64,000 bases of DNA from Deltaproteobacteria bacterium (GCA_029262515.1 JAJCZH010000020.1:65457-129456), one strand, 5' to 3'. Shown: positions 39,409 to 56,609, counted from the stretch's first letter. The notes: generated from the sequence alone by a model not told the origin. Program-made: numbers and translations.

Positions 39409-40260
39409 CTACATCGCCTGCTTATCCTGACGCTCTTTTATTATCTTGATCCGCTCGATTATCTGCTCGGCCCTCTTTTTGTACTCTTTGGCATTCGGAT
39501 GCGTCGGATCGAGGCGAAGCACGCTGTCCCACTCTTCGACAGCAAGCTCCATCTCCTCTTTCTGAAAGTACGAGATGCCCTTCTTGAAGTGACGATCCAC
39601 CTGGTGTTCCCGCCCCTTTACCGCACGCTCAAGCAAGCCCTTTGTATCTAGAAATACCGGGAGCAGATCGTTTACCGTATTAAACTCATTAATAGCTTCG
39701 GTGTAGGCCATAGACTCAAGATAGATCTTGCCGCGCATATAGTGAATATTGGCGCCGACCTCTGGATCTATCTTCTTGATCTTCGCAATTTCCTTCCTTC
39801 TCTCTTTCTCTCTCTTCTTCTTCGCCTTCTTGATTTTCTTCTTGACCTTGCGCATCTCTTCCACGGTAGTGATCGGCTCTACCACACCCTCTTCTAGTCT
39901 ATTCAGTTTTCCTTTGACAAGAAGATTAGCCGGGTTGAACTTAAGAGATGTTCTGTACTCCATGATCGCTTTTGGCACTATACCGGCCTTCTCATAATCC
40001 TCGCCAAGTTCCATATGCTCTCTTGACACTTCAAGCGAGAGAGTCCTTACCTTTTTAAGCAGCTTGCTGGCCTTTTTGTGCCCTGGCTCCTGCTCACCGA
40101 TCAACAGCGCCGCCTCGCGGGCCTCCATGATAAAACCCTGCCGCCACAAGAGTTCAGCCCTCTCGTACTTCGAGCCCATAAGAAACTGGGGTGTATACTG
40201 CACGCAACCCGCAATAAAAAGCAGCAGAGTTACTACAGTTACTCTAAGATGCCATGCCAT
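39409..40260 (-). CDS. TPR-repeat lipoprotein with lysine-rich central segment
   Basis: 283 aa with a lipobox (LFIAGCVQ), TPR-like helices and a KKVKKKIKKAKKKREKERRKEIAKIKK block. Confidence 0.6.
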   Translation of the reverse strand: MAWHLRVTVVTLLLFIAGCVQYTPQFLMGSKYERAELLWRQGFIMEAREAALLIGEQEPGHKKASKLLKKVRTLSLEVSREHMELGEDYEKAGIVPKAIMEYRTSLKFNPANLLVKGKLNRLEEGVVEPITTVEEMRKVKKKIKKAKKKREKERRKEIAKIKKIDPEVGANIHYMRGKIYLESMAYTEAINEFNTVNDLLPVFLDTKGLLERAVKGREHQVDRHFKKGISYFQKEEMELAVEEWDSVLRLDPTHPNAKEYKKRAEQIIERIKIIKERQDKQAM

Positions 40261-41683
40261 CTATAACTATCTTTCTTGTAATCTTTCTAACAACGGTATC
40301 TACTTCGCTCTTCCAGTCGCCTTTGAGTCCCAGAATGCTATAGACCCGAACAGGTCCCTCAATACCTTTTATCATAACCTCTTGCGGCTCGCCAACGACA
40401 AGGTTGCCGCTTACCGACTCGTAAAGCCCGGCGCTTATCATTACTTCATCCGGCCCTGCAATATCCGAGAGGCGCGAAGCGATATTAACTGCAGGCCCTA
40501 CCGCCGTATACTCCATCCTGACACTCGAGCCCATATTCCCTACAATCACATTTCCGGTTTCGAGCCCGACGCCTATACGAAACGGCAGAAGCCGGGCCTG
40601 CTCTCTCGAACCGTTCATCATATCGACCGCCTCTTTAATGGCAACAACCGTCTTTACTCCCTGCTCAAGATGGTTACCCATCTTAACCGGGGAGCCGAAG
40701 ACCCCCATTACAGCGTCTCCTATAAACTTGTCGATCGTTCCGCCAAACTCGGAGACCACTTCTGTAATGAGCGTGAAGTAATCGTTCAGCACCTCAACCG
40801 TCATCTCCGGCGTCATGCGCAGAGAGTGCGAGGTAAAATCCCTAATATCCGCGAAGAAGACCGTAATGTCGCGTTTTTCTCCGCCGAGCCGCACGCTATC
40901 CGGGTCGCGAAGTATCTCGTCTGCCACGTGCGTGCTGACATACCGATTGAAAGCGCCCTTCAACTGCTCTTTCTTCTGCAACTCTTTTGCCATCGTGTTA
41001 AATGAGCCTACGAGTTCGCCTATCTCATCGTGGCTCCTTTTCATTTCTATCCTGTAATCGAAATTGCCCATGGCGATCTCTTTCGTACCCTGAAAGAGCC
41101 TGAGGATCGGCCGCAAAAGGCGTGTTGACAGAGGTATGGAAAGGATCGAAACAAGAAGGATGGCGATAATGGCTATTATGATAACGCTTGTCGTGGCCCT
41201 GCGCACGGTCTGGGCGATAAAGTCTCTGGAGAAGGTTATGGCAGTATAACCTACGATGGTATCCTGAAAGAGGATCGGTGCGGCAAAGGTCAACACGCCT
41301 TCGTCCTCATGTATGAGCCACGGAGGAGGCCCCTCGGCCTCTAGTATCGCATCCCCCCTGCGGTACTCCTTGCCTACATCCTGAAGCCGCATCTGCCCCT
41401 CTATCTCCATGGAATCGTTAAGGACATAGGCGTCAGCAATCCCAGGATACTTCATTATGTTGTCGACCAGCATGTTGAGAGCCAGGCCGTCATTTTGAAG
41501 TATCGGTATCTTAGTGTCGTGGGCGAACTCGTCGGTAATGGTGCCTGCCATGGAGCGCATCTGGTACTCAAGCGAACCCCGCTGGTTAGCAATCATGACT
41601 ATCCCCATCACGGAGGTTGTCACGAAGAGCAATACCGAGAGCACAACGGCAAACTTCATCTTTATGCCGAACTTGATCTTCAT
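40244..41683 (-). CDS. membrane sensor adenylate/guanylate cyclase (periplasmic sensor-HAMP-class III cyclase)
   Basis: 479 aa with two TM helices flanking a ~150 aa periplasmic domain. A HAMP domain is followed by the cyclase signature FADIRDFT...KFIGDAVMGVFG. Confidence 0.85.
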   Translation of the reverse strand: MKIKFGIKMKFAVVLSVLLFVTTSVMGIVMIANQRGSLEYQMRSMAGTITDEFAHDTKIPILQNDGLALNMLVDNIMKYPGIADAYVLNDSMEIEGQMRLQDVGKEYRRGDAILEAEGPPPWLIHEDEGVLTFAAPILFQDTIVGYTAITFSRDFIAQTVRRATTSVIIIAIIAILLVSILSIPLSTRLLRPILRLFQGTKEIAMGNFDYRIEMKRSHDEIGELVGSFNTMAKELQKKEQLKGAFNRYVSTHVADEILRDPDSVRLGGEKRDITVFFADIRDFTSHSLRMTPEMTVEVLNDYFTLITEVVSEFGGTIDKFIGDAVMGVFGSPVKMGNHLEQGVKTVVAIKEAVDMMNGSREQARLLPFRIGVGLETGNVIVGNMGSSVRMEYTAVGPAVNIASRLSDIAGPDEVMISAGLYESVSGNLVVGEPQEVMIKGIEGPVRVYSILGLKGDWKSEVDTVVRKITRKIVIDGMAS

Positions 41684-47022: not shown

Positions 47023-47904
47023 TTACTTCTTTTTGTCCTTCGACTCGTCCTCGTCCTCGTCCTCTTTCTCTACAGGCACAGGAGGCGCCGGCTGCGAATG
47101 GCACCTGAAGCAGTCCTCGAGCGGAAAAGAGACTGTGCCGTGACAGGTGCCGCAATACTGGCCGGCTATAATCTTCAACATATGCATATCCTTATTGCCT
47201 CCGGCCTTCTCTTTAAAGATGCTCGGATGGCAATTTGCACATGTAAGCTGCTCGGTATGCGCCTTGTGCGGAAACTTCACATCCGGCGGATGAGGCGTCA
47301 TCTTGACCGCCGGTATAATTATATCGGTATCTAGAACCTTCAGTTTCTCGCCCCCGGAACTCAGTTTTATGTCGCGCTTCCTCAGCGCTTTCACCCAGTT
47401 TACCCTGTTGCCAAAGTCGTCTTCCGGCAATGGCTCCCTCAGTTCTTCCATATCACTATTACCGGTATCATCCGCATCGAGACCCGAAGAGTGGCACCTT
47501 GTGCAACTATCTTCGTCATCGGCAGCAAACGCAACCCGGTCATTGTGACACGTAGCGCAGAACTTGCCTTCTTCCATAGCTGAGTGAGTAACACCGGCCT
47601 TGCCGGCTTTGAACGAGTAACCTGAATCGGAATGGCAGGCGCTACAGGTATATTTAACCCTGTGGGCAAGGTGTGAAAAGATTACCGGCTTTACTCCCTT
47701 AGACTCGTCGATACCCTTACCCATCAAGACGTCACCGAACGCATCGGGATTCCTCACCCTTCCGTGACCGCTCCATGCGGCAGCCTTACGGGCCGTATAC
47801 CCATCATCTGTCTTCTTTACCTTTTCTGCGGCATCTGAGTAAAGCGGGGTTAAAAGAAAGACTGCAAGAAACGTAAAAACCAGTGTATGCCTAATAAACC
47901 TCAC
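47023..47904 (-). CDS. hexaheme c-type cytochrome, secreted
   Basis: 293 aa with a signal peptide and 6 CxxCH motifs (CSACH, CATCH, CTRCH, CANCH, CGTCH, CFRCH). The C-terminal tail reads PAPPVPVEKEDEDEDESKDKKK. Confidence 0.85.
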   Translation of the reverse strand: MRFIRHTLVFTFLAVFLLTPLYSDAAEKVKKTDDGYTARKAAAWSGHGRVRNPDAFGDVLMGKGIDESKGVKPVIFSHLAHRVKYTCSACHSDSGYSFKAGKAGVTHSAMEEGKFCATCHNDRVAFAADDEDSCTRCHSSGLDADDTGNSDMEELREPLPEDDFGNRVNWVKALRKRDIKLSSGGEKLKVLDTDIIIPAVKMTPHPPDVKFPHKAHTEQLTCANCHPSIFKEKAGGNKDMHMLKIIAGQYCGTCHGTVSFPLEDCFRCHSQPAPPVPVEKEDEDEDESKDKKK

Positions 47905-47958
47905 TAACCTACCTCCGTGGAGTATGTAACAGATATAAGGCCCAATGCCGCAAGAGAC

Positions 47959-48387
47959 TCAATAGCCCTTGTGGCACGAAGCGCAGAGTTTAAAGTACGA
48001 AACCCGAAGCATATTAGGGTGCCGGGTTTTATTATGTTGCTCGTGGCATGTATTACAGACCAGGAGCCCGCCTTCCGAGACCGGCAACGAGACCGGAAGC
48101 ATGCGTCCCGGCGCTTTTCCCATCGGGTGCCTGACGACAGGGTGATTACCTACATTGCCCGCATGGCACTTTGTGCAGGTTGTAACGGGGTCTGCAAGCA
48201 GTTCTGGCGACTGAGAGACATGGCATATCACGCAACTCTTCTTGTCTCTAAAGTCATGCGGACTTTTCCGCGTCCACTCCTCTTCATCTGCCTGCGCACT
48301 AACACTGCCCGTAAGTATGCAAAGAGCTAGCGAAGATAACAGAACTGCAAGTACCAGTTGTAGTGACTTGCTCAAATTGTTCTCCAT
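47959..48387 (-). CDS. tetraheme c-type cytochrome (c3/c7-like)
   Basis: 142 aa with a signal peptide and 4 CxxCH motifs. Confidence 0.85.
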   Translation of the reverse strand: MENNLSKSLQLVLAVLLSSLALCILTGSVSAQADEEEWTRKSPHDFRDKKSCVICHVSQSPELLADPVTTCTKCHAGNVGNHPVVRHPMGKAPGRMLPVSLPVSEGGLLVCNTCHEQHNKTRHPNMLRVSYFKLCASCHKGY

Positions 48388-48527
48388 AGTGCTCTCAAAA
48401 CGCCAGTTGTGTCATGGAAGAATGTGGCCCTTCCGGGTGAGACCCCTTTAAAACAACAGACCATATCGACAACTTTCAACAGCGATTGCGATCTTCAAAG
48501 TACTACAAAACAAGTGTGGATAAAACA

Positions 48528-50765
48528 TCAATTGGAGCAATCGGCAACGATGTTACAGTCGTAATTGACCTGTGGCGTGCTGATAGTAACCGGAGTAGTA
48601 GAGAAGTCCTTATTACAAACCTCGTCCGTTAACGGAGCCACGGCCCTGAAGCCGATACTACCGCCTGACAGCGTGCTCGGGCGCGTATACGACTCAACGC
48701 ATGCTCCGTTCATCATACGGTACCCAAGCGGATCTCCGGAGCTGCCGGCAGCGCCATTACTGCCGTGAACTCCCTTTATCACATTATCCACAGCGTCGTA
48801 ACCGCCGCCATGACAGGTTAAGCAGAGGTTGCTGAACTTATTGGAATTATTACCCGTGTCTGCGCCAATAGCATAAAACGGAGAGGCGACACCAAGACCG
48901 TCCGGCGGATGGGAGACCCTTGAGTATGAGGCGTATATGCCTACGTAACCCTGGTCTCCGTAAACATCCCTGCGGTGGCAATTATAACAGAAGTTCTGCA
49001 GTGAACCAATACCGGTTGTGTTATTCTTCAAGATCCATTTATTATCAGAACCGTGAGGCCCGACCGGATCACTCGAGACGCTTGAGCCGTGACAATCCGA
49101 GCACGTCATCATAGAGTCATGCTTGACATTATAGTATCCGGCTCTTGCTCCTCCACCGGTAAACTCCACATACCTGAAGGTATTTGAAAGGCCGAGGCCG
49201 TTTATCGGCCAGTTGATATTAGCGCTTACCGGCGGTTTATTCTTACCGCTGGCAAAGACAGGGTGGACCGACATATTGTTGACATTAAAGTCTTTGGTCA
49301 TGTCCGACTGCCTGAGAGTAGAACCGTTGGCATTGCCAGACGGGGCATTCGGCGGCAGGAAACCGTATGCGTAATAAGAGTGGCACTTTAAGCAAAGGTA
49401 CCCTTCGAGGTTGTCAAAGCCGGCTGTGGTCGTGGTAAAATCGACCTCTTGATACGTATTGGCTGCGGTACCCGCCAAAGGCCACGGCGACGGCTTTACT
49501 CCCCAACTTCCTAAAATATTGGGTCCGATTATATTACCGTCGATATCTCCAACCTTATGGTTACCGGGCATTGTGCCGTGAGAGTTGTGGCAGTCCGCGC
49601 ACTCTGCATGCCTGTTACCGCCGAGGTTTACCGCGCTCTCTCGGACGGGATCTAAAGATGCCGCCCGCGATGGCACATGAGCGCCGACAGTAGCTTTGAC
49701 ATTATGCTTCGATATGCGGTTGAAGACCGGTTCCATATCTTTAACGGCTACGTTACCGTTATGACAATTGAGACATGTCCACTCCTCTGCATCAACGCTC
49801 TGCGTAACCGGGTTCGTACCCTTTAGAAGAGGCGTACCAGAAGAGCCGGTGTGCGAACGGTGGCATGCTACACAACTCTGCAAGGCCGGCGTATCGTCAC
49901 TAAAATCAGGAGTAACGCCTAAATCCTCATGGAACGGATTCTCACCGAGCCCGTTCCACGTAGCGGTTGAGGTAGAGTGAACCGACGGCATGGTGCTCCA
50001 GTACCTCAAGTCATGGCATGTATTGCAGATTGCCCCGTTATCCAGCGGTTCAACCATCATTTTGGGATAGGCCGTACCATGCGGGTCGTGGCAGCTCCGG
50101 CACTGCACCTGACCGTTGCTATCGAGTTTAACGTTCAACGGTAATGTTGCCGAATCTCTTATTTCGGTATTTGAAGGGTACGACAGAGAATAATCGAATG
50201 AAATCGGATGATCGTCACTAAGGTCTGTGCCTATAAAGGCTGTCGAGACGGATGTCAACATGCCAGAGGTAACGCCAGGCCCCGTTACGGCAAGAATACC
50301 GCCTGGACTCGCCTTGCCGGGAAGGTTTAGCATGGAGCCGAGCGCTATCGTACCGTCGTGGCAAGAGAGGCAGAGCTTTGAAGAGCCGGTGGGCTGCCCC
50401 AGAACTGCCGAGACCGTCTGCGAGGCGTAAATATTGTAGGTGGCGGACGAAGCATCTCTGTTCCACATAGGGTTTGCCGGATTGGAGTTGTGTGGAGTAT
50501 GGCAGAAGACGCATATCTCGCTATTTTGAGTAGTCTTTACATCCGCCTTGGAGAGACTTCCGAAGTTGTGCTTAGTGCCGGCAACAGAGGCGTGCGCAAC
50601 CGGCGCCGTAACCGTCAGCATCAACAGAGCAACTGCAACGACTGACACGGTGCGTAACAGTACAGCCGTATAACCGCTACCGCTGCTAAACATTTCTGTT
50701 GCCATACTCAAGCCTCTTTCATTCTTTTCCATATCCATAACATTCCGTCTCTTTAATTCGCGCAA
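48528..50765 (-). CDS. large undecaheme c-type cytochrome with paired CxxCHxxH motifs, probably cell-surface
   Basis: 745 aa with a signal peptide and 11 CxxCH motifs. Several are of the CxxCHxxH form (CVFCHTPH, CRSCHDPH, CVACHRSH, CADCHNSH). The composition is S/T/G/N-rich. Confidence 0.85.
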   Translation of the reverse strand: MRELKRRNVMDMEKNERGLSMATEMFSSGSGYTAVLLRTVSVVAVALLMLTVTAPVAHASVAGTKHNFGSLSKADVKTTQNSEICVFCHTPHNSNPANPMWNRDASSATYNIYASQTVSAVLGQPTGSSKLCLSCHDGTIALGSMLNLPGKASPGGILAVTGPGVTSGMLTSVSTAFIGTDLSDDHPISFDYSLSYPSNTEIRDSATLPLNVKLDSNGQVQCRSCHDPHGTAYPKMMVEPLDNGAICNTCHDLRYWSTMPSVHSTSTATWNGLGENPFHEDLGVTPDFSDDTPALQSCVACHRSHTGSSGTPLLKGTNPVTQSVDAEEWTCLNCHNGNVAVKDMEPVFNRISKHNVKATVGAHVPSRAASLDPVRESAVNLGGNRHAECADCHNSHGTMPGNHKVGDIDGNIIGPNILGSWGVKPSPWPLAGTAANTYQEVDFTTTTAGFDNLEGYLCLKCHSYYAYGFLPPNAPSGNANGSTLRQSDMTKDFNVNNMSVHPVFASGKNKPPVSANINWPINGLGLSNTFRYVEFTGGGARAGYYNVKHDSMMTCSDCHGSSVSSDPVGPHGSDNKWILKNNTTGIGSLQNFCYNCHRRDVYGDQGYVGIYASYSRVSHPPDGLGVASPFYAIGADTGNNSNKFSNLCLTCHGGGYDAVDNVIKGVHGSNGAAGSSGDPLGYRMMNGACVESYTRPSTLSGGSIGFRAVAPLTDEVCNKDFSTTPVTISTPQVNYDCNIVADCSN

Positions 50766-50786
50766 AATCTAATCGACCGATACGGG

Positions 50787-51893
50787 TTACGATAACTTAC
50801 CACCTTCACCGAGGTGTTCGAATATCTGAATTCTTCTGTTATAAGAGTCCGCTACATAGATATAACCGCCGGAATCTATAAAGAGCCCGCTCGGCATCCA
50901 GAAAGCCCCTCTTGCGTCCCCGATACTGCCGAAGTTGAGCATAAAGTTTCCGTCGCGGTCAAATATCTGAACCGTATCGAACAGGGCGTCTGCAACATAT
51001 ATATTGCCGTCCATGTCTACGGCTATGCCCTTGGGCCTGCCGAAATCCCCGGAGCCGTCACCCTGCGTGCCGAAGCTTGATATGAACCTGCCACCGGAAT
51101 CGAATATCTGAACCTTGTAGTTCATCGTATCTACGACATAGACATCAGACCTGCGGTCTAGGAATATATCTACCGGAAAACTGAATTTACCTTTCGTATC
51201 ACCGCGCCCGCCGAAGGTCTTGACCCCACTGCCGTCAAGGTTTGACATACGGACATTATGAGAGCCGGTATCAACAACATAGAGCCGTTTGGCGGACTTG
51301 TTTATCGCAAGACCCGTAGGCCTTTTTCCGACATTGAACCCACTCACGTACTTGCCGTTAAAATTAAAGACATAGACCTTTGCCGCAATAGAATCGGTTA
51401 CGTAGATATTGTCCTGCCCGTCCACGGCCACGCCTATCAAAGAAATAAAAGCAAAATCTCCTGCGCGCTCTATACGGCTGTACTTCTTCTCTTTCATATC
51501 ATAAATGTGGATAAGCTTGAGAGCGGTGTCGGCAACGAGAATCCTGCCTCTTGAATCGACCGTAAGCCCGTAGGGCTTTACCATGTTATTGACCTTGGCA
51601 CCAAAGAGAACATCGGCAAGCTTCTTGAAAAAACCGCTGCCAGCGCCGATATCCTTAGGCGTTGCAATCACCTTGGAGTAACTTATACGTGGAGGCGCCG
51701 GTGGAGAGGGCCAGATAAGGGCCTTTTGCGAACTTAAATCTTCGGTATCGTCCCCCTTGGAGGCAGTGCAGGACGGAAGCGTCACCCCGAGCGTAACAAG
51801 CATAAGAACGGTAAGGATAGAAAGTCCAAAACGGGCTCTCAGGGCAACAACGCCGGAGGTTAGCGAGAAAGAGGTAGCGGCTATCTTTTCCAT
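50787..51893 (-). CDS. NHL-repeat six-bladed beta-propeller lipoprotein
   Basis: A lipobox (LPSCTA) and repeated NHL signatures (GIAVDxxGNIYVxD). The start is set at the ATG at 51893; the track ORF starts 32 aa upstream. Confidence 0.8.
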   Translation of the reverse strand: MEKIAATSFSLTSGVVALRARFGLSILTVLMLVTLGVTLPSCTASKGDDTEDLSSQKALIWPSPPAPPRISYSKVIATPKDIGAGSGFFKKLADVLFGAKVNNMVKPYGLTVDSRGRILVADTALKLIHIYDMKEKKYSRIERAGDFAFISLIGVAVDGQDNIYVTDSIAAKVYVFNFNGKYVSGFNVGKRPTGLAINKSAKRLYVVDTGSHNVRMSNLDGSGVKTFGGRGDTKGKFSFPVDIFLDRRSDVYVVDTMNYKVQIFDSGGRFISSFGTQGDGSGDFGRPKGIAVDMDGNIYVADALFDTVQIFDRDGNFMLNFGSIGDARGAFWMPSGLFIDSGGYIYVADSYNRRIQIFEHLGEGGKLS

Positions 51894-52035
51894 ACTCCTA
51901 TCAGTGCTCCCTTTACTATTTTGCTTACTCTTTGGCATATTTTTCAGTACACTCCCTGACATATCAGCACTTACCGTTATTGAGACCAAACCCGTGCCAA
52001 CGACTTGTCAACACAAGACCTGCCGTCTTCTCGAT

Positions 52036-52641
52036 TCACTTCCTGTGGCAGTACTGACAGATCTCAAGTCCTTCGGAACGGAGCCTGCGAACCGAATCCG
52101 CGCCCCAGTCATTCCTACCCTTCAACACTCCCTTTTCGTGACTATTGTGACATGTAACGCATGTGACTTTACCTGTCTCAGGGTCGAGCGGCAAGATAGT
52201 ATTAACCTCTTTCAAGGCAAGCCTCATGTTCAAGGAAATAATTTTCGTCGGCTCTACAAGATGGTCGGTCGCATAGATAAAACTCATAGCGCCGCCTATC
52301 GTATCTTTAGTGGCAGGGTGATTCTTTATCGTATGGCACTTGTAGCAGAGCTCTTTGTACTCTCCACCTACGCGAAGCTCAATATCACCCTGCCTGTCCA
52401 TACTCAAGTCCGGCACACCCTTATGGCAGACAAGACAGACACCCCAAAGAACCTCACCTTCATCATTTACCTGCTCATGAGGGTTTACTACTGTCTTTAA
52501 CGCCAAACTCCTTGCATACGGCGCAACATCGGATCTGAACTTGGGTGCAGGCTCCTCTGCGCTCATACTGCTGCCGACACCCAGCATCAGAAGCACAACG
52601 GCCAGAACAGGTATAGTAGATCTCTTTATTAATTTGCGCAT
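52036..52641 (-). CDS. tetraheme c-type cytochrome
   Basis: 201 aa with a signal peptide and 4 CxxCH motifs. The last motif, CQYCHRK, sits at the extreme C-terminus. Confidence 0.85.
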   Translation of the reverse strand: MRKLIKRSTIPVLAVVLLMLGVGSSMSAEEPAPKFRSDVAPYARSLALKTVVNPHEQVNDEGEVLWGVCLVCHKGVPDLSMDRQGDIELRVGGEYKELCYKCHTIKNHPATKDTIGGAMSFIYATDHLVEPTKIISLNMRLALKEVNTILPLDPETGKVTCVTCHNSHEKGVLKGRNDWGADSVRRLRSEGLEICQYCHRK

Positions 52642-52813
52642 TATTCGAATGGCCCTTTATAATAAGCACGGTAGCCTCAAAAGACTACTTAGATAGAAAA
52701 CCATAAAATCACAAAATCGACGGCCAAAGCGGAACCCAAAACAGATATATGAATTTTAACGCCCTTACCTAACCCGTAAGCAGAACCGGAGCATGCTCAA
52801 CTCAATTGAAAAA

Positions 52814-53971
52814 TCAAGGCGCAAACGCATATACTTTTCCGTCTTTAGAACTGACAAAGACTTTACCGTCGGAGACAGCCGGGCTCGACTGCACTCCCCC
52901 CCCTGTCTTGTACTTCCATAAAACATCTCCGAAAGTAGAATCGACAGCGTAGAAGTAACCGTCGTCGCAACCGACATATATAATACTGCTCGAAGTTAGC
53001 ACCGGAGTAGAGTTTATAGCTGCCGGAAGTTTGAACTCGGAGATATCTTCACCTGTACTCTTGTTAAGCACAACTATCTTGCCGCTCCTGAGCGCCTGAT
53101 ACAGTCGCCCCCTGCTGACTACGGGAGAGGAGTACGGAAGATCGTTCCCGAACGATTTTCTCCAGAGAACCTTACCGTTACTCACATCCATCGCAAAGAG
53201 TTTACGCTCGTTATTCGCAACATATAACATTTTACCGTTTACCGCAGGAGTGGCATAAACGGAAGAGGTCAGCTTTTTGTTCCAGTTACGCGCACCGCTC
53301 TTGATGCTAGTTGAATAGAGAGTACCGCTTTTACCAGCAACTATTATCGCGTCGTCAGCAAGGACAGGAGAGGCGTACATGCCTCCGTACTTAATCTTGT
53401 CACGTATCTTACGGCGCCACTTTCTCTTACCTGTCTTGGCATCTATGGCATAATACTGACCGTCGCTCGCAGCTATATAGACCATGCCGTCTTCCACAAA
53501 CGGAGAGGTAAATACCTCGACCTTCGTATCGTAACGCCATACCTCCTTACCGGTATCCGTGTTGAGCGCGTAGACCTTGCCGTCCTTCGAACCGAAGAAG
53601 ATGGAACCCTTGACGGCGGCAGGAGTGGAGAGTATCTCGCCATCGACCTCAAAACTCCAGAGCTTGGAGCCGGTTTCGGCATCGAGGGCATAAAGCTTCT
53701 TGTCGTACGACCCGATAAAAACCTTACCGTCGTAAACTATAGGAGAGGAGTAGATCGGTCCGCCGGTTGTAAAAGACCATTTTAGCTCCAGAGGAGGGCT
53801 CGGAGCATTTCGCGCATAAGAGGTCCGACCGCTGTCCTTCATAAACATCGGCCAGTCTGCACCGACCGTACCGGAAGAAGCGAAAATAAAAGAGACCGCC
53901 ACTGCAAGCATTACGATAATAGTAGGCATCATGCGCCGGGACCTGCCAAATAAACCTTTAATGGTTACCAT
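52814..53971 (-). CDS. PQQ-like (BamB-type) beta-propeller repeat protein
   Basis: 385 aa with a signal peptide and repeated G-K-V/L-Y-A-L/V-D-xx-T-G-K-xx-W blades. Confidence 0.8.
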   Translation of the reverse strand: MVTIKGLFGRSRRMMPTIIVMLAVAVSFIFASSGTVGADWPMFMKDSGRTSYARNAPSPPLELKWSFTTGGPIYSSPIVYDGKVFIGSYDKKLYALDAETGSKLWSFEVDGEILSTPAAVKGSIFFGSKDGKVYALNTDTGKEVWRYDTKVEVFTSPFVEDGMVYIAASDGQYYAIDAKTGKRKWRRKIRDKIKYGGMYASPVLADDAIIVAGKSGTLYSTSIKSGARNWNKKLTSSVYATPAVNGKMLYVANNERKLFAMDVSNGKVLWRKSFGNDLPYSSPVVSRGRLYQALRSGKIVVLNKSTGEDISEFKLPAAINSTPVLTSSSIIYVGCDDGYFYAVDSTFGDVLWKYKTGGGVQSSPAVSDGKVFVSSKDGKVYAFAP

Positions 53972-54615
53972 TAGACCTTAAACCTCGAAATCTTTTCCTG
54001 CGCCATCTTTCTCTCAAACGCAATAGTGTCGAGCATACTCTTCAAGTCGGCTCGTGAAGGAGCCTCACCTTTTTGAGTCAACCTCAACTCGTTAAAACTT
54101 CTCTCCATCTCCAGTACCGACCACCCGACAACTTTAAAACTCTCCTCCAGGCAGCCTGCCATAGAGTTAAAAGAGTCCGGCAGGGCAGGCTGAGCGTCGC
54201 CCATATCCACACGCTCGATAAAATAACCCCTGCCGAACTTCGAAACCGATTCCTTCAACCCAGCCATCGGAGTCTCTACGCGCTTTAATAGAACACGGCC
54301 TATCAAAGCGGCAGCAATAACTATAACGGGTACGACTGTCACGGTCAATTTCCATAATATCGGCATCGCAATTTCCGAGGTCGACCGTACCCTTATATGA
54401 ATTTTATATAACTCTGCAGTGAGCTCCCTGTCAATTAAAAAATAGACGAGAATCATATTGGCAACAATACCGATGAAGACAGCAAGAGCGAAGCCAACGA
54501 CGAAGCGAGACTGCATCTTTCTGTTTATAAAGAAGTGGCGCCTTCTTAACCTTGGAAAAGTTGGTTCTACCATAGAATCAAAACCTTCCGTAAACTCTTC
54601 CTCACCCTCAGGCAA
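53971..54615 (-). CDS. two-TM HAMP-domain membrane protein without output domain
   Basis: 214 aa: TM1, a short loop, TM2, then a HAMP-like segment (LLKRVETPMAGLKESVSKFGRGYF...) and a ~50 aa tail. Its stop overlaps the start of the PQQ gene (TAATG). Confidence 0.6.
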   Translation of the reverse strand: MPEGEEEFTEGFDSMVEPTFPRLRRRHFFINRKMQSRFVVGFALAVFIGIVANMILVYFLIDRELTAELYKIHIRVRSTSEIAMPILWKLTVTVVPVIVIAAALIGRVLLKRVETPMAGLKESVSKFGRGYFIERVDMGDAQPALPDSFNSMAGCLEESFKVVGWSVLEMERSFNELRLTQKGEAPSRADLKSMLDTIAFERKMAQEKISRFKV

Positions 54616-54706
54616 GTAAATAATATTATACCGTTATTAAAAGCCAATTAATACCGAATTAAATAGCAACTAACAAAAACAGGGCCCGAAGACGAAGCCC
54701 GACCCT

Positions 54707-55522
54707 TTACTTGACGTGGCAACCGAGACAAAGAGCGCTACCTTCATTGCTCATGCTCAACTCCTGACCGATATGCGAGTACGGATTGTGGCAAGTCCCG
54801 CACCCGACAACTCCGGCAAACAGCTTAATCCCCGACGGCAGTTCGTTCACCCCCCTCAAGGCGCCCATATACTTACGCTTCATCTCAAAGTAGTTCATGC
54901 CTATAGGATGGCTCAGCCCTATTGACTGAATGTTATGAATAATACTGGACGTAGAGGTAATTGCCCTGTTACCAGAGAGCGAATCGACGCCGAACTCACC
55001 GTCGTGGCAGGCCAGGCACTTTATCGATATATCGTCAAGAACCGTACCGAAATCGCCTACATTCAACCCGGTGGATAACGTAGAGCCGATGTGCGCCGAC
55101 CCGATAGAAACCTTGTGCAGCTCGGCATCTATGTCACTATGGCACAATATACAGAAACCCTCGCCGATAGCGTTCGACCTCAGGCGGTAAGCTCCGAAAC
55201 CCTGCTGATGAGCCGGATGGCACGTAACACAGGTGACCTGCCCTCTCCAGTCGAGCGGAAAAGTGCTCGGCACAATAGCGTTTACGGGCACCATATCTAC
55301 GGGATGCGAAAACTCCCTGGCACTCTCGTGACAGTCGAGGCAAAGCTCACTCTCGTCCGCGTACAATGTACCGGGTCCCTCACCCGGCCCCGGTACGGCT
55401 ATATGACAATCGAGACATAATCCATCGAAGTTATGATAATTAGTCCACTGGGAAAAGACGTACCCTGCATAAACAGCAAATCCGATAAATAGCGTTACTA
55501 TAATAATCCTGACCTTTACCAC
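54707..55522 (-). CDS. heptaheme c-type cytochrome with N-terminal membrane anchor
   Basis: 271 aa with an N-terminal TM or signal anchor and 7 CxxCH motifs. Confidence 0.85.
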   Translation of the reverse strand: MVKVRIIIVTLFIGFAVYAGYVFSQWTNYHNFDGLCLDCHIAVPGPGEGPGTLYADESELCLDCHESAREFSHPVDMVPVNAIVPSTFPLDWRGQVTCVTCHPAHQQGFGAYRLRSNAIGEGFCILCHSDIDAELHKVSIGSAHIGSTLSTGLNVGDFGTVLDDISIKCLACHDGEFGVDSLSGNRAITSTSSIIHNIQSIGLSHPIGMNYFEMKRKYMGALRGVNELPSGIKLFAGVVGCGTCHNPYSHIGQELSMSNEGSALCLGCHVK

Positions 55523-55529
55523 AGACGCC

Positions 55530-56138
55530 CTACTCTTTCAGAGTGACACTCGAGCCGACTCTCTTCAAGTTCTCTATAGCCGCCCCCAGGCCCGCCAACC
55601 GCCTATCAACCTCCTGTGCGCTCTCAGTACCCGGCTTTGTATCGAGAAGTTCGGCAACCAACGCCTCCTTAGACTCGATATCGGCCAAAGCATCGCTTGT
55701 ACTTCGAACTGTATGGTTAACAGAGCGAACCATGGTATTTATCTCCCCCGCAATAGAGACGAACTGATCACCGCCCCGAAGATAGGTATCATGGGTAAGG
55801 TCTCCTGCGCCGATCTCGTCAAAAGCTCTTTTAAGCCGAACAGCGGGTCCCGCCATCTTATGAGAGAAAAAGAGCGCAATTACCGCTATCGCAACCGTCA
55901 CTACAGCAAGAATAAAGACCGAATAGAACGAAGCGAACATCAAAGAGAAGATATTTACCTTCAAGGAGTAGATGGTATAGATAGCGGAGCGGTAGGAGCC
56001 ACCGAGGTTCTTGGCTGTTGCAAAGTAGATAAAGAGCGTAATGCTAAGCATCCCGAGTATGGTTAGCATACAGAGTTTTATGCCGAACTTTAGCTTAAAA
56101 CCTCTTTCAACCAATACGTCTTCGCTCATAAACGGCAT
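55530..56138 (-). CDS. two-TM HAMP-domain membrane protein without output domain
   Basis: 202 aa: TM1, a 26 aa loop, TM2, a HAMP segment (HKMAGPAVRLKRAFDEIGAGDLTHDTYL...INTMVRSV) and a ~70 aa helical tail. It is the first gene of the cytochrome cluster. Confidence 0.65.
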   Translation of the reverse strand: MPFMSEDVLVERGFKLKFGIKLCMLTILGMLSITLFIYFATAKNLGGSYRSAIYTIYSLKVNIFSLMFASFYSVFILAVVTVAIAVIALFFSHKMAGPAVRLKRAFDEIGAGDLTHDTYLRGGDQFVSIAGEINTMVRSVNHTVRSTSDALADIESKEALVAELLDTKPGTESAQEVDRRLAGLGAAIENLKRVGSSVTLKE

Positions 56139-56548: not shown

Positions 56549-56558
56549 AAATAAGAGA

Positions 56559-56609
56559 CCCCCTGAGAACTTCCGGCATTAGAAGTTCTCAGGGGGCCTT
56601 TCTCTTTAT
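56559..56609. terminator. bidirectional intrinsic terminator (tRNA-Cys and malic enzyme gene)
   Basis: A 15-bp perfect stem CCCCCTGAGAACTTC/GAAGTTCTCAGGGGG with T-rich tracts on both sides. Confidence 0.75.

Follow-up and report, generated by a model that had tools for sequence, protein, structure and literature searches.

The minus strand of a 64,000-nucleotide (nt) stretch of DNA from a Deltaproteobacteria bacterium (GCA_029262515.1, JAJCZH010000020.1:65457-129456; the whole stretch is referred to as the window) harbours a block of nine genes for multihaem cytochromes, beta-propellers and HAMP-domain membrane proteins at positions 47023-56138. This block is probably the version of a widespread multihaem cytochrome system of the OmcE or undecahaem electron transfer (Uet) type that belongs to the class GWC2-55-46 of the Desulfobacterota, and it is built from recurring modules. 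The core of the system is already known, and the layout found here, which lacks a barrel and a free OmcE and contains a pyrroloquinoline quinone (PQQ)-like propeller and a HAMP trio, is an undescribed variant of it. With the genes labelled g1 to g9 in the order of transcription, four modules can be distinguished: g6 and g7 are the invariant core found across phyla, g1, g2 and g3 are an inner-membrane module that often accompanies this core, g4 and g5 encode a propeller and a tetrahaem cytochrome, and g8 and g9 encode small periplasmic cytochromes.

From g1 to g9 the open reading frames (ORFs) contain 0, 7, 0, 0, 4, 0, 11, 4 and 6 CxxCH haem-binding motifs, 32 altogether, and are separated by 7, 91, -1, 172, 46, 21, 140 and 54 nt, the stop codon of g3 and the start codon of g4 having 1 nt in common. 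Domains were assigned by Pfam and NCBIfam profile searches, in which g2, g5, g7, g8 and g9 matched models of paired-CxxCH or c7-type cytochromes, and topology (transmembrane (TM) helices, signal peptides and lipobox) by a hydropathy heuristic, which predicted signal peptides on g4, g5, g7, g8 and g9. An earlier note on this DNA had listed nine co-oriented genes on the minus strand with 32 CxxCH motifs and a 1-nt overlap, and the recount agrees with it. The same is true for the two propellers and two output-less HAMP proteins it had described, which were recovered as PQQ_2 (g4), NHL (g6) and, at the family level, HAMP (g1 and g3), and for the porin gene that it could not recognise, as no porin-like ORF was found in the block. 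The coordinates of g1 to g9 and of their domains given below refer to the minus strand.

The NHL-undecahaem core and its distribution

The core consists of an NHL-repeat beta-propeller lipoprotein (g6, 50787-51989) and a secreted undecahaem cytochrome of the UetJ-like family (g7, 48528-50765). The propeller was recognised by the Pfam family NHL (E=2e-27), has the lipobox LPSC and gave further matches among the propellers, to the SGL, arylesterase and lactonase families. For both genes the start of the longest ORF lies probably too far upstream; the true start of g6 is likely near 51893 and that of g7 likely at 50738, and the database copy of g7 has 736 amino acids (aa) compared to 745 aa in the longest ORF.

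The connection of g7 to a characterised nanowire cytochrome was established by phmmer and by a family profile, which delineate an OmcE-homologous tetrahaem unit at residues ~43-251 (50013-50639). The N-terminal ~210 residues match G. sulfurreducens OmcE (7TFS) in phmmer with E=8e-22, and all four CxxCH motifs and four extra histidines are aligned. The profile of the g7 family spans the whole of OmcE (7TFS, E=1.9e-38; D. soudanensis OmcE 9YUQ, 5e-32) and reaches OmcS 6EF8 with 1.8e-5. The earlier statement that the block has no Omc signature is therefore not correct for g7. At the other end of the protein, a C-terminal extension of ~90 residues (~residues 660-745, 48531-48788) with four cysteines, predicted beta-strands and no Pfam match is specific for the lineage, and its alignment columns are gaps in 86-89% of the family members.

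Homologues of g7 were confirmed at no fewer than 582 loci (>=582) in species-representative genomes and in >15 phyla. The best 80 loci, from which the taxonomy was listed, belong to Desulfobacterota, Gamma- and Betaproteobacteria, Nitrospirota, Bacteroidota, Planctomycetota, Verrucomicrobiota, Ignavibacteriota/Chlorobiota, Calditrichota, Acidobacteriota, Myxococcota, Zixibacteria and others. A cultured Planctomycetales strain (CP050848.1) is among the hosts of the NHL-undecahaem pair. Among the 84 non-redundant family members, 79 have exactly 11 CxxCH motifs, and 13 histidines outside of the motifs are conserved at >=98% (H66-H619 in g7 of the window). It might be speculated that up to two of these conserved histidines are spare and could ligate a haem of a partner, for example at the end of an OmcE filament.

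In 75 of 86 loci, the g7 homologue is preceded by an NHL homologue in the same orientation that ends within a few hundred nt of it, and contig edges account for several exceptions; the g6-g7 pair is therefore an ancient and tightly linked module. This also revises the view of the earlier note that the block maps to no named system, since g6-g7 is the invariant core of the omcE nanowire cluster (10.1101/2025.10.22.684050) and, by architecture, also that of Uet (10.1101/2022.05.06.490989), in which UetD/E/G are the counterpart of g9. Knowledge of cytochrome nanowire and Uet clusters comes mostly from a small number of model or enrichment organisms. The NHL-undecahaem pair, with its presence in at least 582 species-representative genomes and more than 15 phyla, is far more widespread than the five phyla reported for OmcE homologues. 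As the pair persists without a barrel or a filament subunit, it is the pair, and not OmcE, that looks like the conserved heart of these systems.

Elsewhere a common gene order was observed around this pair, consisting of an OmcE-like tetrahaem cytochrome, a propeller lipoprotein, a small cytochrome with 4-5 haems, a ~670-aa protein without a Pfam match, the NHL lipoprotein and the undecahaem cytochrome. This canonical order is seen in Geobacteraceae (locus L083), Desulforhopalus (L055), Gammaproteobacteria (L018, L039), Flavobacteriaceae (L033) and many others, and the tetrahaem ORFs match OmcE (1e-24 in L039, 1e-12 in L083). The ~670-aa proteins have signal peptides and end with F or W in 8 of 9 cases, as outer-membrane proteins do, and are candidate outer-membrane barrels by these features. 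Outside of the class GWC2-55-46, the barrel was found in 55 of 76 loci and a free OmcE-like gene in 43 of 76. A third variant occurs in metagenome-assembled genomes (MAGs) of the Sulfuricella/Sulfurimicrobium type (L016:1938-8593, L014:1244-8667, L007:524-8954), where a 7-haem cytochrome, a ~310-aa protein, which in L007 is a cytochrome b-like Ni_hydr_CYTB protein, a 3-haem membrane protein and a 24-haem cytochrome (~1040 aa) are followed by NHL, undecahaem and ResB/CcsA genes; neither a barrel nor a free OmcE lies within 10 kb.

The complete nine-gene block recurs in collinear form in GCA_001595385.3, where the single genes are 41-63% identical at the aa level, as well as in GCA_040961595.1 and six other MAG species. 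Because of its collinearity in these eight species the block is not a chance assembly, in line with the proposal of a multihaem electron-transfer cluster whose genes are conserved together. A variant of the block with two inserted genes is present in L089. The Desulfuromonadales setting that had been suggested for the block was not supported, as the synteny search of the block led to collinear relatives in the class GWC2-55-46 of the Desulfobacterota, to which GCA_001595385.3 belongs (PMC13386864). Nor does the block reproduce a characterised Geobacter locus collinearly and at high identity. This class is an uncultured lineage with an unusual O2-independent ubiquinone pathway (PMC13386864).

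The HAMP/heptahaem/HAMP trio

The first three genes encode a heptahaem cytochrome between two related membrane proteins. The product of g1 (55530-56138) is an inner-membrane protein of 202 aa with two TM segments (residues 22-40 and 73-91 by the hydropathy heuristic), a short periplasmic loop, a cytoplasmic HAMP domain and a helical tail of ~60 aa. Its Pfam HAMP match (E=2e-4) is under the Pfam cutoff, and its NCBIfam matches (~1e-8) lie on the TM2-HAMP regions of histidine kinases and methyl-accepting chemotaxis proteins (MCPs; CpxA, MtrB and MCPs). The 214-aa protein encoded by g3 (53971-54615) has two TM segments, a HAMP-like region and a helical tail and yielded no Pfam match of its own. 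Comparison of the ortholog profiles of the g1 and g3 families by hhalign resulted in a probability of 98.8% and E=5e-17 over the full length, and g3 is, as judged from this profile comparison, a divergent paralogue of g1. HAMP was found in 6 of 9 g1-family and 3 of 8 g3-family members, so that the domain is weak in the copies of the window and clear at the family level. Both proteins are predicted to have a periplasmic loop of ~30 aa and a cytoplasmic HAMP domain followed by a helical tail of ~55-60 aa.

The 271-aa heptahaem c-type cytochrome g2 (54707-55522) starts with a membrane helix that is probably a signal anchor, and its first haem motif begins 11 residues past this helix. Only six histidines outside of the motifs are conserved for its seven haems. 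In the ortholog alignments, the periplasmic loop of g3 contains an invariant histidine (His73), and a tyrosine of g1 (Tyr49) is likewise invariant. It is conceivable that the invariant loop histidine of g3 is a partner-donated haem ligand for g2, which is a lead and not a finding.

Homologues of g2 comprise 674 proteins, and among the 120 listed almost all have 253-290 aa. Outside of the class GWC2-55-46, every heptahaem gene examined was flanked by two genes for ~190-aa proteins with two TM segments and HAMP. The trio adjoins the canonical barrel-containing cluster in L018, L036, L066, L082, L088, L090 and L091, with Nitrospirota, Gammaproteobacteria and other Deltaproteobacteria as hosts of this combination, and is also located inside the variant nine-gene block of L089. 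In the Nitrospirota loci, genes for a sigma-54-dependent response regulator and a HAMP histidine kinase are found directly beside the trio on the opposite strand (L090:11373-14291, L091:11376-14281, L066:12030-14803). In canonical clusters, the undecahaem gene and the trio are separated by a conserved gene for a secreted protein of ~255 aa without a Pfam match (L066:9292-10077, L036:5739-6491, L090:8661-9422), which the window lacks.

No description of the trio was found in the literature searched for HAMP and multihaem clusters. It is possible, although doubtful at present, that the trio is a previously undescribed inner-membrane complex which serves OmcE/Uet-type clusters in several phyla, either as a new quinol:cytochrome entry point or as a redox transducer linking the charge state of the haem chain outside the cell to a signal in the cytoplasm, and which in GWC2-55-46 works together with an undecahaem 'wire' without a dedicated outer-membrane barrel. 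The trio accompanies these clusters in several phyla and offers a concrete candidate for their missing link to the inner membrane or to sensing.

Signalling by the HAMP pair may plausibly be a built-in function of the cluster. A more far-reaching proposal would be that the cluster is mainly a redox sensor, in which g2 senses, g1 and g3 transduce via HAMP as in the sensory rhodopsin-Htr systems, and the other cytochromes equilibrate g2 with the periplasmic redox pool. Two TM segments, HAMP, a helical tail and a loop of only ~30 aa are typical of transducers that sense through membrane partners, homologues of g1 and g3 always flank a g2 homologue, and the kinase and regulator adjoining the trio in Nitrospirota would fit as well. 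However, domain searches revealed no output module (kinase, MCP or cyclase) after HAMP in g1 or g3, and neither a kinase nor a regulator is a conserved neighbour of the block in the window, L002 or L006. In addition, 32 haems far exceed the needs of a sensor, and the trio always accompanies a large electron-transfer cluster, to which a structural or regulatory accessory role fits equally. A sensor as the main function is therefore considered unlikely.

The predicted haem relay and its genomic setting

The remaining four genes encode a second propeller and three small cytochromes. The 385-aa product of g4 (52814-53971) is a secreted PQQ-repeat/BamB-like beta-propeller (PQQ_2, E=2e-56; Beta-prop_ACSF4, E=1e-64) that has a signal peptide without a lipobox. 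It remains below the NCBIfam cutoffs for PQQ dehydrogenase (TIGR03075, 124 vs 480 bits) and for BamB (TIGR03300, 203 vs 285 bits). As it contains no histidine at all and only one cysteine, it is a propeller of the scaffold type and not a dehydrogenase.

The secreted tetrahaem cytochrome g5 (52036-52641, 201 aa, 4 CxxCH) is 38-39% identical to part of the 8-haem cytochrome of canonical clusters (L039:7220-8206). It was considered as an equivalent of OmcE/UetA and rejected, because it has no sequence relative in the PDB and matches part of the 8-haem cytochrome instead. A second secreted tetrahaem cytochrome, g8 (47959-48387, 142 aa, 4 CxxCH), has a weak match to the GSU1996 fragment 3OUQ (E=4e-5). 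The secreted hexahaem cytochrome g9 (47023-47904, 293 aa) consists of two c7-type trihaem domains, which were both detected by TIGR04257 (E=5e-32), and matches GSU1996 3OV0 with E=9e-34. Apart from a weak g4-like/g5-like pair in L007, g4, g8 and g9 are essentially confined to the lineage of the window.

Based on the observed homologies, the co-conservation and the predicted topology, the cluster most likely forms a haem relay from the inner membrane to the envelope. The heptahaem cytochrome g2 would be the inner-membrane end of this relay, g9, g8 and g5 might act as soluble periplasmic carriers from g2 to g7, and g7 would be the 11-haem wire that receives the relay. The propellers g6 and g4 could be docking or assembly scaffolds, a role that has been proposed for the NHL proteins of D. 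ferrophilus (PMC5815863). The HAMP proteins g1 and g3 may serve to keep g2 stable in the membrane, or else to signal its redox state to the cytoplasm. Electron export and electron uptake would both be compatible with such an arrangement.

Several results weigh against an OmcE/Uet-type relay in this locus. A homologue of the barrel was found in none of 10 loci of the class, and tblastn with four barrel candidates found none in the 64-kb window. Likewise, no free OmcE-like ORF was found in these 10 loci or in the window, where the N-terminal unit of g7 is the only OmcE-like sequence. Since barrel and free OmcE are both absent, a conduit that reaches the surface is not supported by the locus itself, and the relay would therefore end inside the envelope or use unlinked outer-membrane parts. 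Profile searches revealed no NapC/NirT/NrfH signature in g2, and a quinol-oxidising entry point is for this reason a conjecture. An AlphaFold2 model of g7 from an alignment of 16 sequences reached a predicted local distance difference test (pLDDT) score of 31 and showed no usable haem geometry. The likeness of g7 to UetJ of Candidatus Tenderia electrophaga is one of architecture and not of sequence comparison. With regard to the operon structure, weak hairpins lie inside three internal gaps (3' of g2, g4 and g5).

The OmcE-type unit could also mean that g7 is itself the subunit of a filament, which would polymerise via ligation of haems by histidines between subunits, with g6 and g4 as assembly chaperones. 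Polymerisation of OmcE and OmcS relies on a histidine that one subunit provides as ligand for a haem in the next (PMC9473688). The unit in g7 is a full-length OmcE homologue in which the motifs and four additional histidines are aligned, and 13 conserved non-motif histidines for 11 haems would provide spare ligands. On the other hand, the undecahaem cytochrome is not the filament subunit in canonical clusters, because a separate OmcE-like subunit coexists with it there (43 of 76 loci). The ~500-residue C-terminal extension that follows the OmcE-type unit would occupy the OmcE subunit interface, a secretion barrel is missing in the GWC2-55-46 loci, and the AlphaFold2 model is unusable here as well. 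A filament made of g7 is thus improbable. A periplasmic enzyme system, in which a propeller would act as PQQ dehydrogenase or NHL/SGL-type hydrolase with the cytochromes as electron acceptors, would agree with the PQQ-repeat match of g4 and the SGL, arylesterase and lactonase matches of g6, but is very improbable, given that g4 is a bare 385-aa propeller devoid of histidine, with one cysteine and 124 bits compared to a PQQ-dehydrogenase cutoff of 480, and that the g6 family stays linked to the undecahaem cytochrome from phylum to phylum, whatever the metabolism.

In the relatives, the block is flanked by hemE/hemH/hemY on one side and by a DHH-CBS-PolyA-polymerase gene on the other side. The window shares only the latter flank; its upstream neighbour is a malic-enzyme gene, which is followed by a strong terminator-like hairpin (56556-56599, minus strand) with a 19-bp stem, 10 G-C pairs and a T-rich tail. 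This hairpin reads as terminator-like on both strands and marks the upstream boundary of the cluster. The total numbers of promoter-like and terminator-like sites in the region showed no excess over the shuffle expectation and support neither one operon nor several. An origin of the block as a mobile element or island was rejected on the basis of its housekeeping flanks (dcw cluster, RNase E/G, malic enzyme) and the even GC content. A gene for a HAMP-adenylate/guanylate cyclase (40244-41683) is located ~6 kb downstream of the cluster. The remaining window contains mostly housekeeping genes, namely mraW, ftsI, mur ligases, RNase E/G, a radical-SAM gene, gamma-glutamyltranspeptidase and GCS2.

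Comparison with known systems

Sensory rhodopsin II and HtrII form a sensor/transducer pair. The trio resembles it by functional analogy, with no homology implied, in that a protein with two TM segments, HAMP and a minimal periplasmic loop is found beside a membrane-anchored cofactor protein. In contrast to HtrII, g1 and g3 are devoid of the MCP signalling domain, and the partner is a c-type cytochrome.

To the porin-cytochrome conduits (Mtr/Pcc/Ext) the block showed only sub-threshold partial matches, to the DmsE, MtrC and GSU2203 models, and no porin-like ORF was found in it. Compared to the c7-type periplasmic cytochromes, g9 has six haems, whereas GSU1996 has twelve and PpcA three. In D. 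ferrophilus IS5, multihaem cytochromes are co-expressed with NHL beta-propellers (DFE_448-451 and DFE_461-465), which were proposed to stabilise a cytochrome complex on the outer surface (PMC5815863). By description, the combination of NHL proteins and multihaem cytochromes is alike in both organisms, but the haem counts are 12 and 14 in D. ferrophilus, and HAMP proteins are unreported there.

The Uet cluster of Candidatus Tenderia electrophaga and Gallionella encodes the tetrahaem cytochrome UetA, the barrel UetC, the c7-type trihaem cytochromes UetD/E/G, the NHL proteins UetH/I and the undecahaem cytochrome UetJ (10.1101/2022.05.06.490989; PMC10734462). Alike are a secreted undecahaem cytochrome encoded directly downstream of an NHL gene (g6 ends 21 nt before the g7 ORF), a cytochrome with c7-type trihaem domains and the tetrahaem cytochromes. 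According to the domains of the nine products and the flanking genes, the window differs by the lack of the UetC barrel, the UetB peptidyl-prolyl isomerase, the UetF cupredoxin and the downstream ccsAB, has one NHL protein instead of two, and adds the HAMP proteins, the heptahaem cytochrome and the PQQ-like propeller.

As described by Wang, Bond and colleagues, the omcE cluster in its smallest form comprises OmcE, a large barrel, two propeller lipoproteins and two multihaem cytochromes (10.1101/2025.10.22.684050). The canonical gene order found around the NHL-undecahaem pair agrees with this cluster and resembles the Uet cluster. With the omcE clusters of Desulfuromonadia (G. sulfurreducens 7TFS, D. 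soudanensis 9YUQ) the window shares the OmcE-type tetrahaem unit, an NHL lipoprotein beside a larger multihaem cytochrome and further multihaem cytochromes. It differs from them in that no free OmcE is encoded, the unit being fused to seven more haems, and in that the large barrel is lacking. Where those clusters have two propeller lipoproteins, it has the NHL lipoprotein g6 and the PQQ/BamB-type g4, which by its signal peptide without a predicted lipobox is probably not a lipoprotein, and it contains the HAMP/heptahaem/HAMP trio and the c7 hexahaem cytochrome in addition. The genomic setting is also different, as the block is flanked in the lineage of the window by the DHH-CBS-PolyA polymerase gene and, at its opposite end, by hem genes or malic enzyme.

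OmcE systems export electrons, whereas Uet was proposed to take electrons up. By architecture (L039:353-7068, L018:5035-11767, L083:3913-11620), the minimal omcE cluster and the Uet cluster look like one widespread system. The equivalent parts would be UetA and OmcE, UetC and the large barrel, UetH/I and the two propellers, and UetJ and the undecahaem cytochrome. Homologues of g7 occupy the position beside the NHL gene in the canonical clusters, including that of the Geobacteraceae MAG L083, and with the same pair as its core the locus analysed here places an OmcE/Uet-type system in the uncultured class GWC2-55-46, if the reading preferred above is right.

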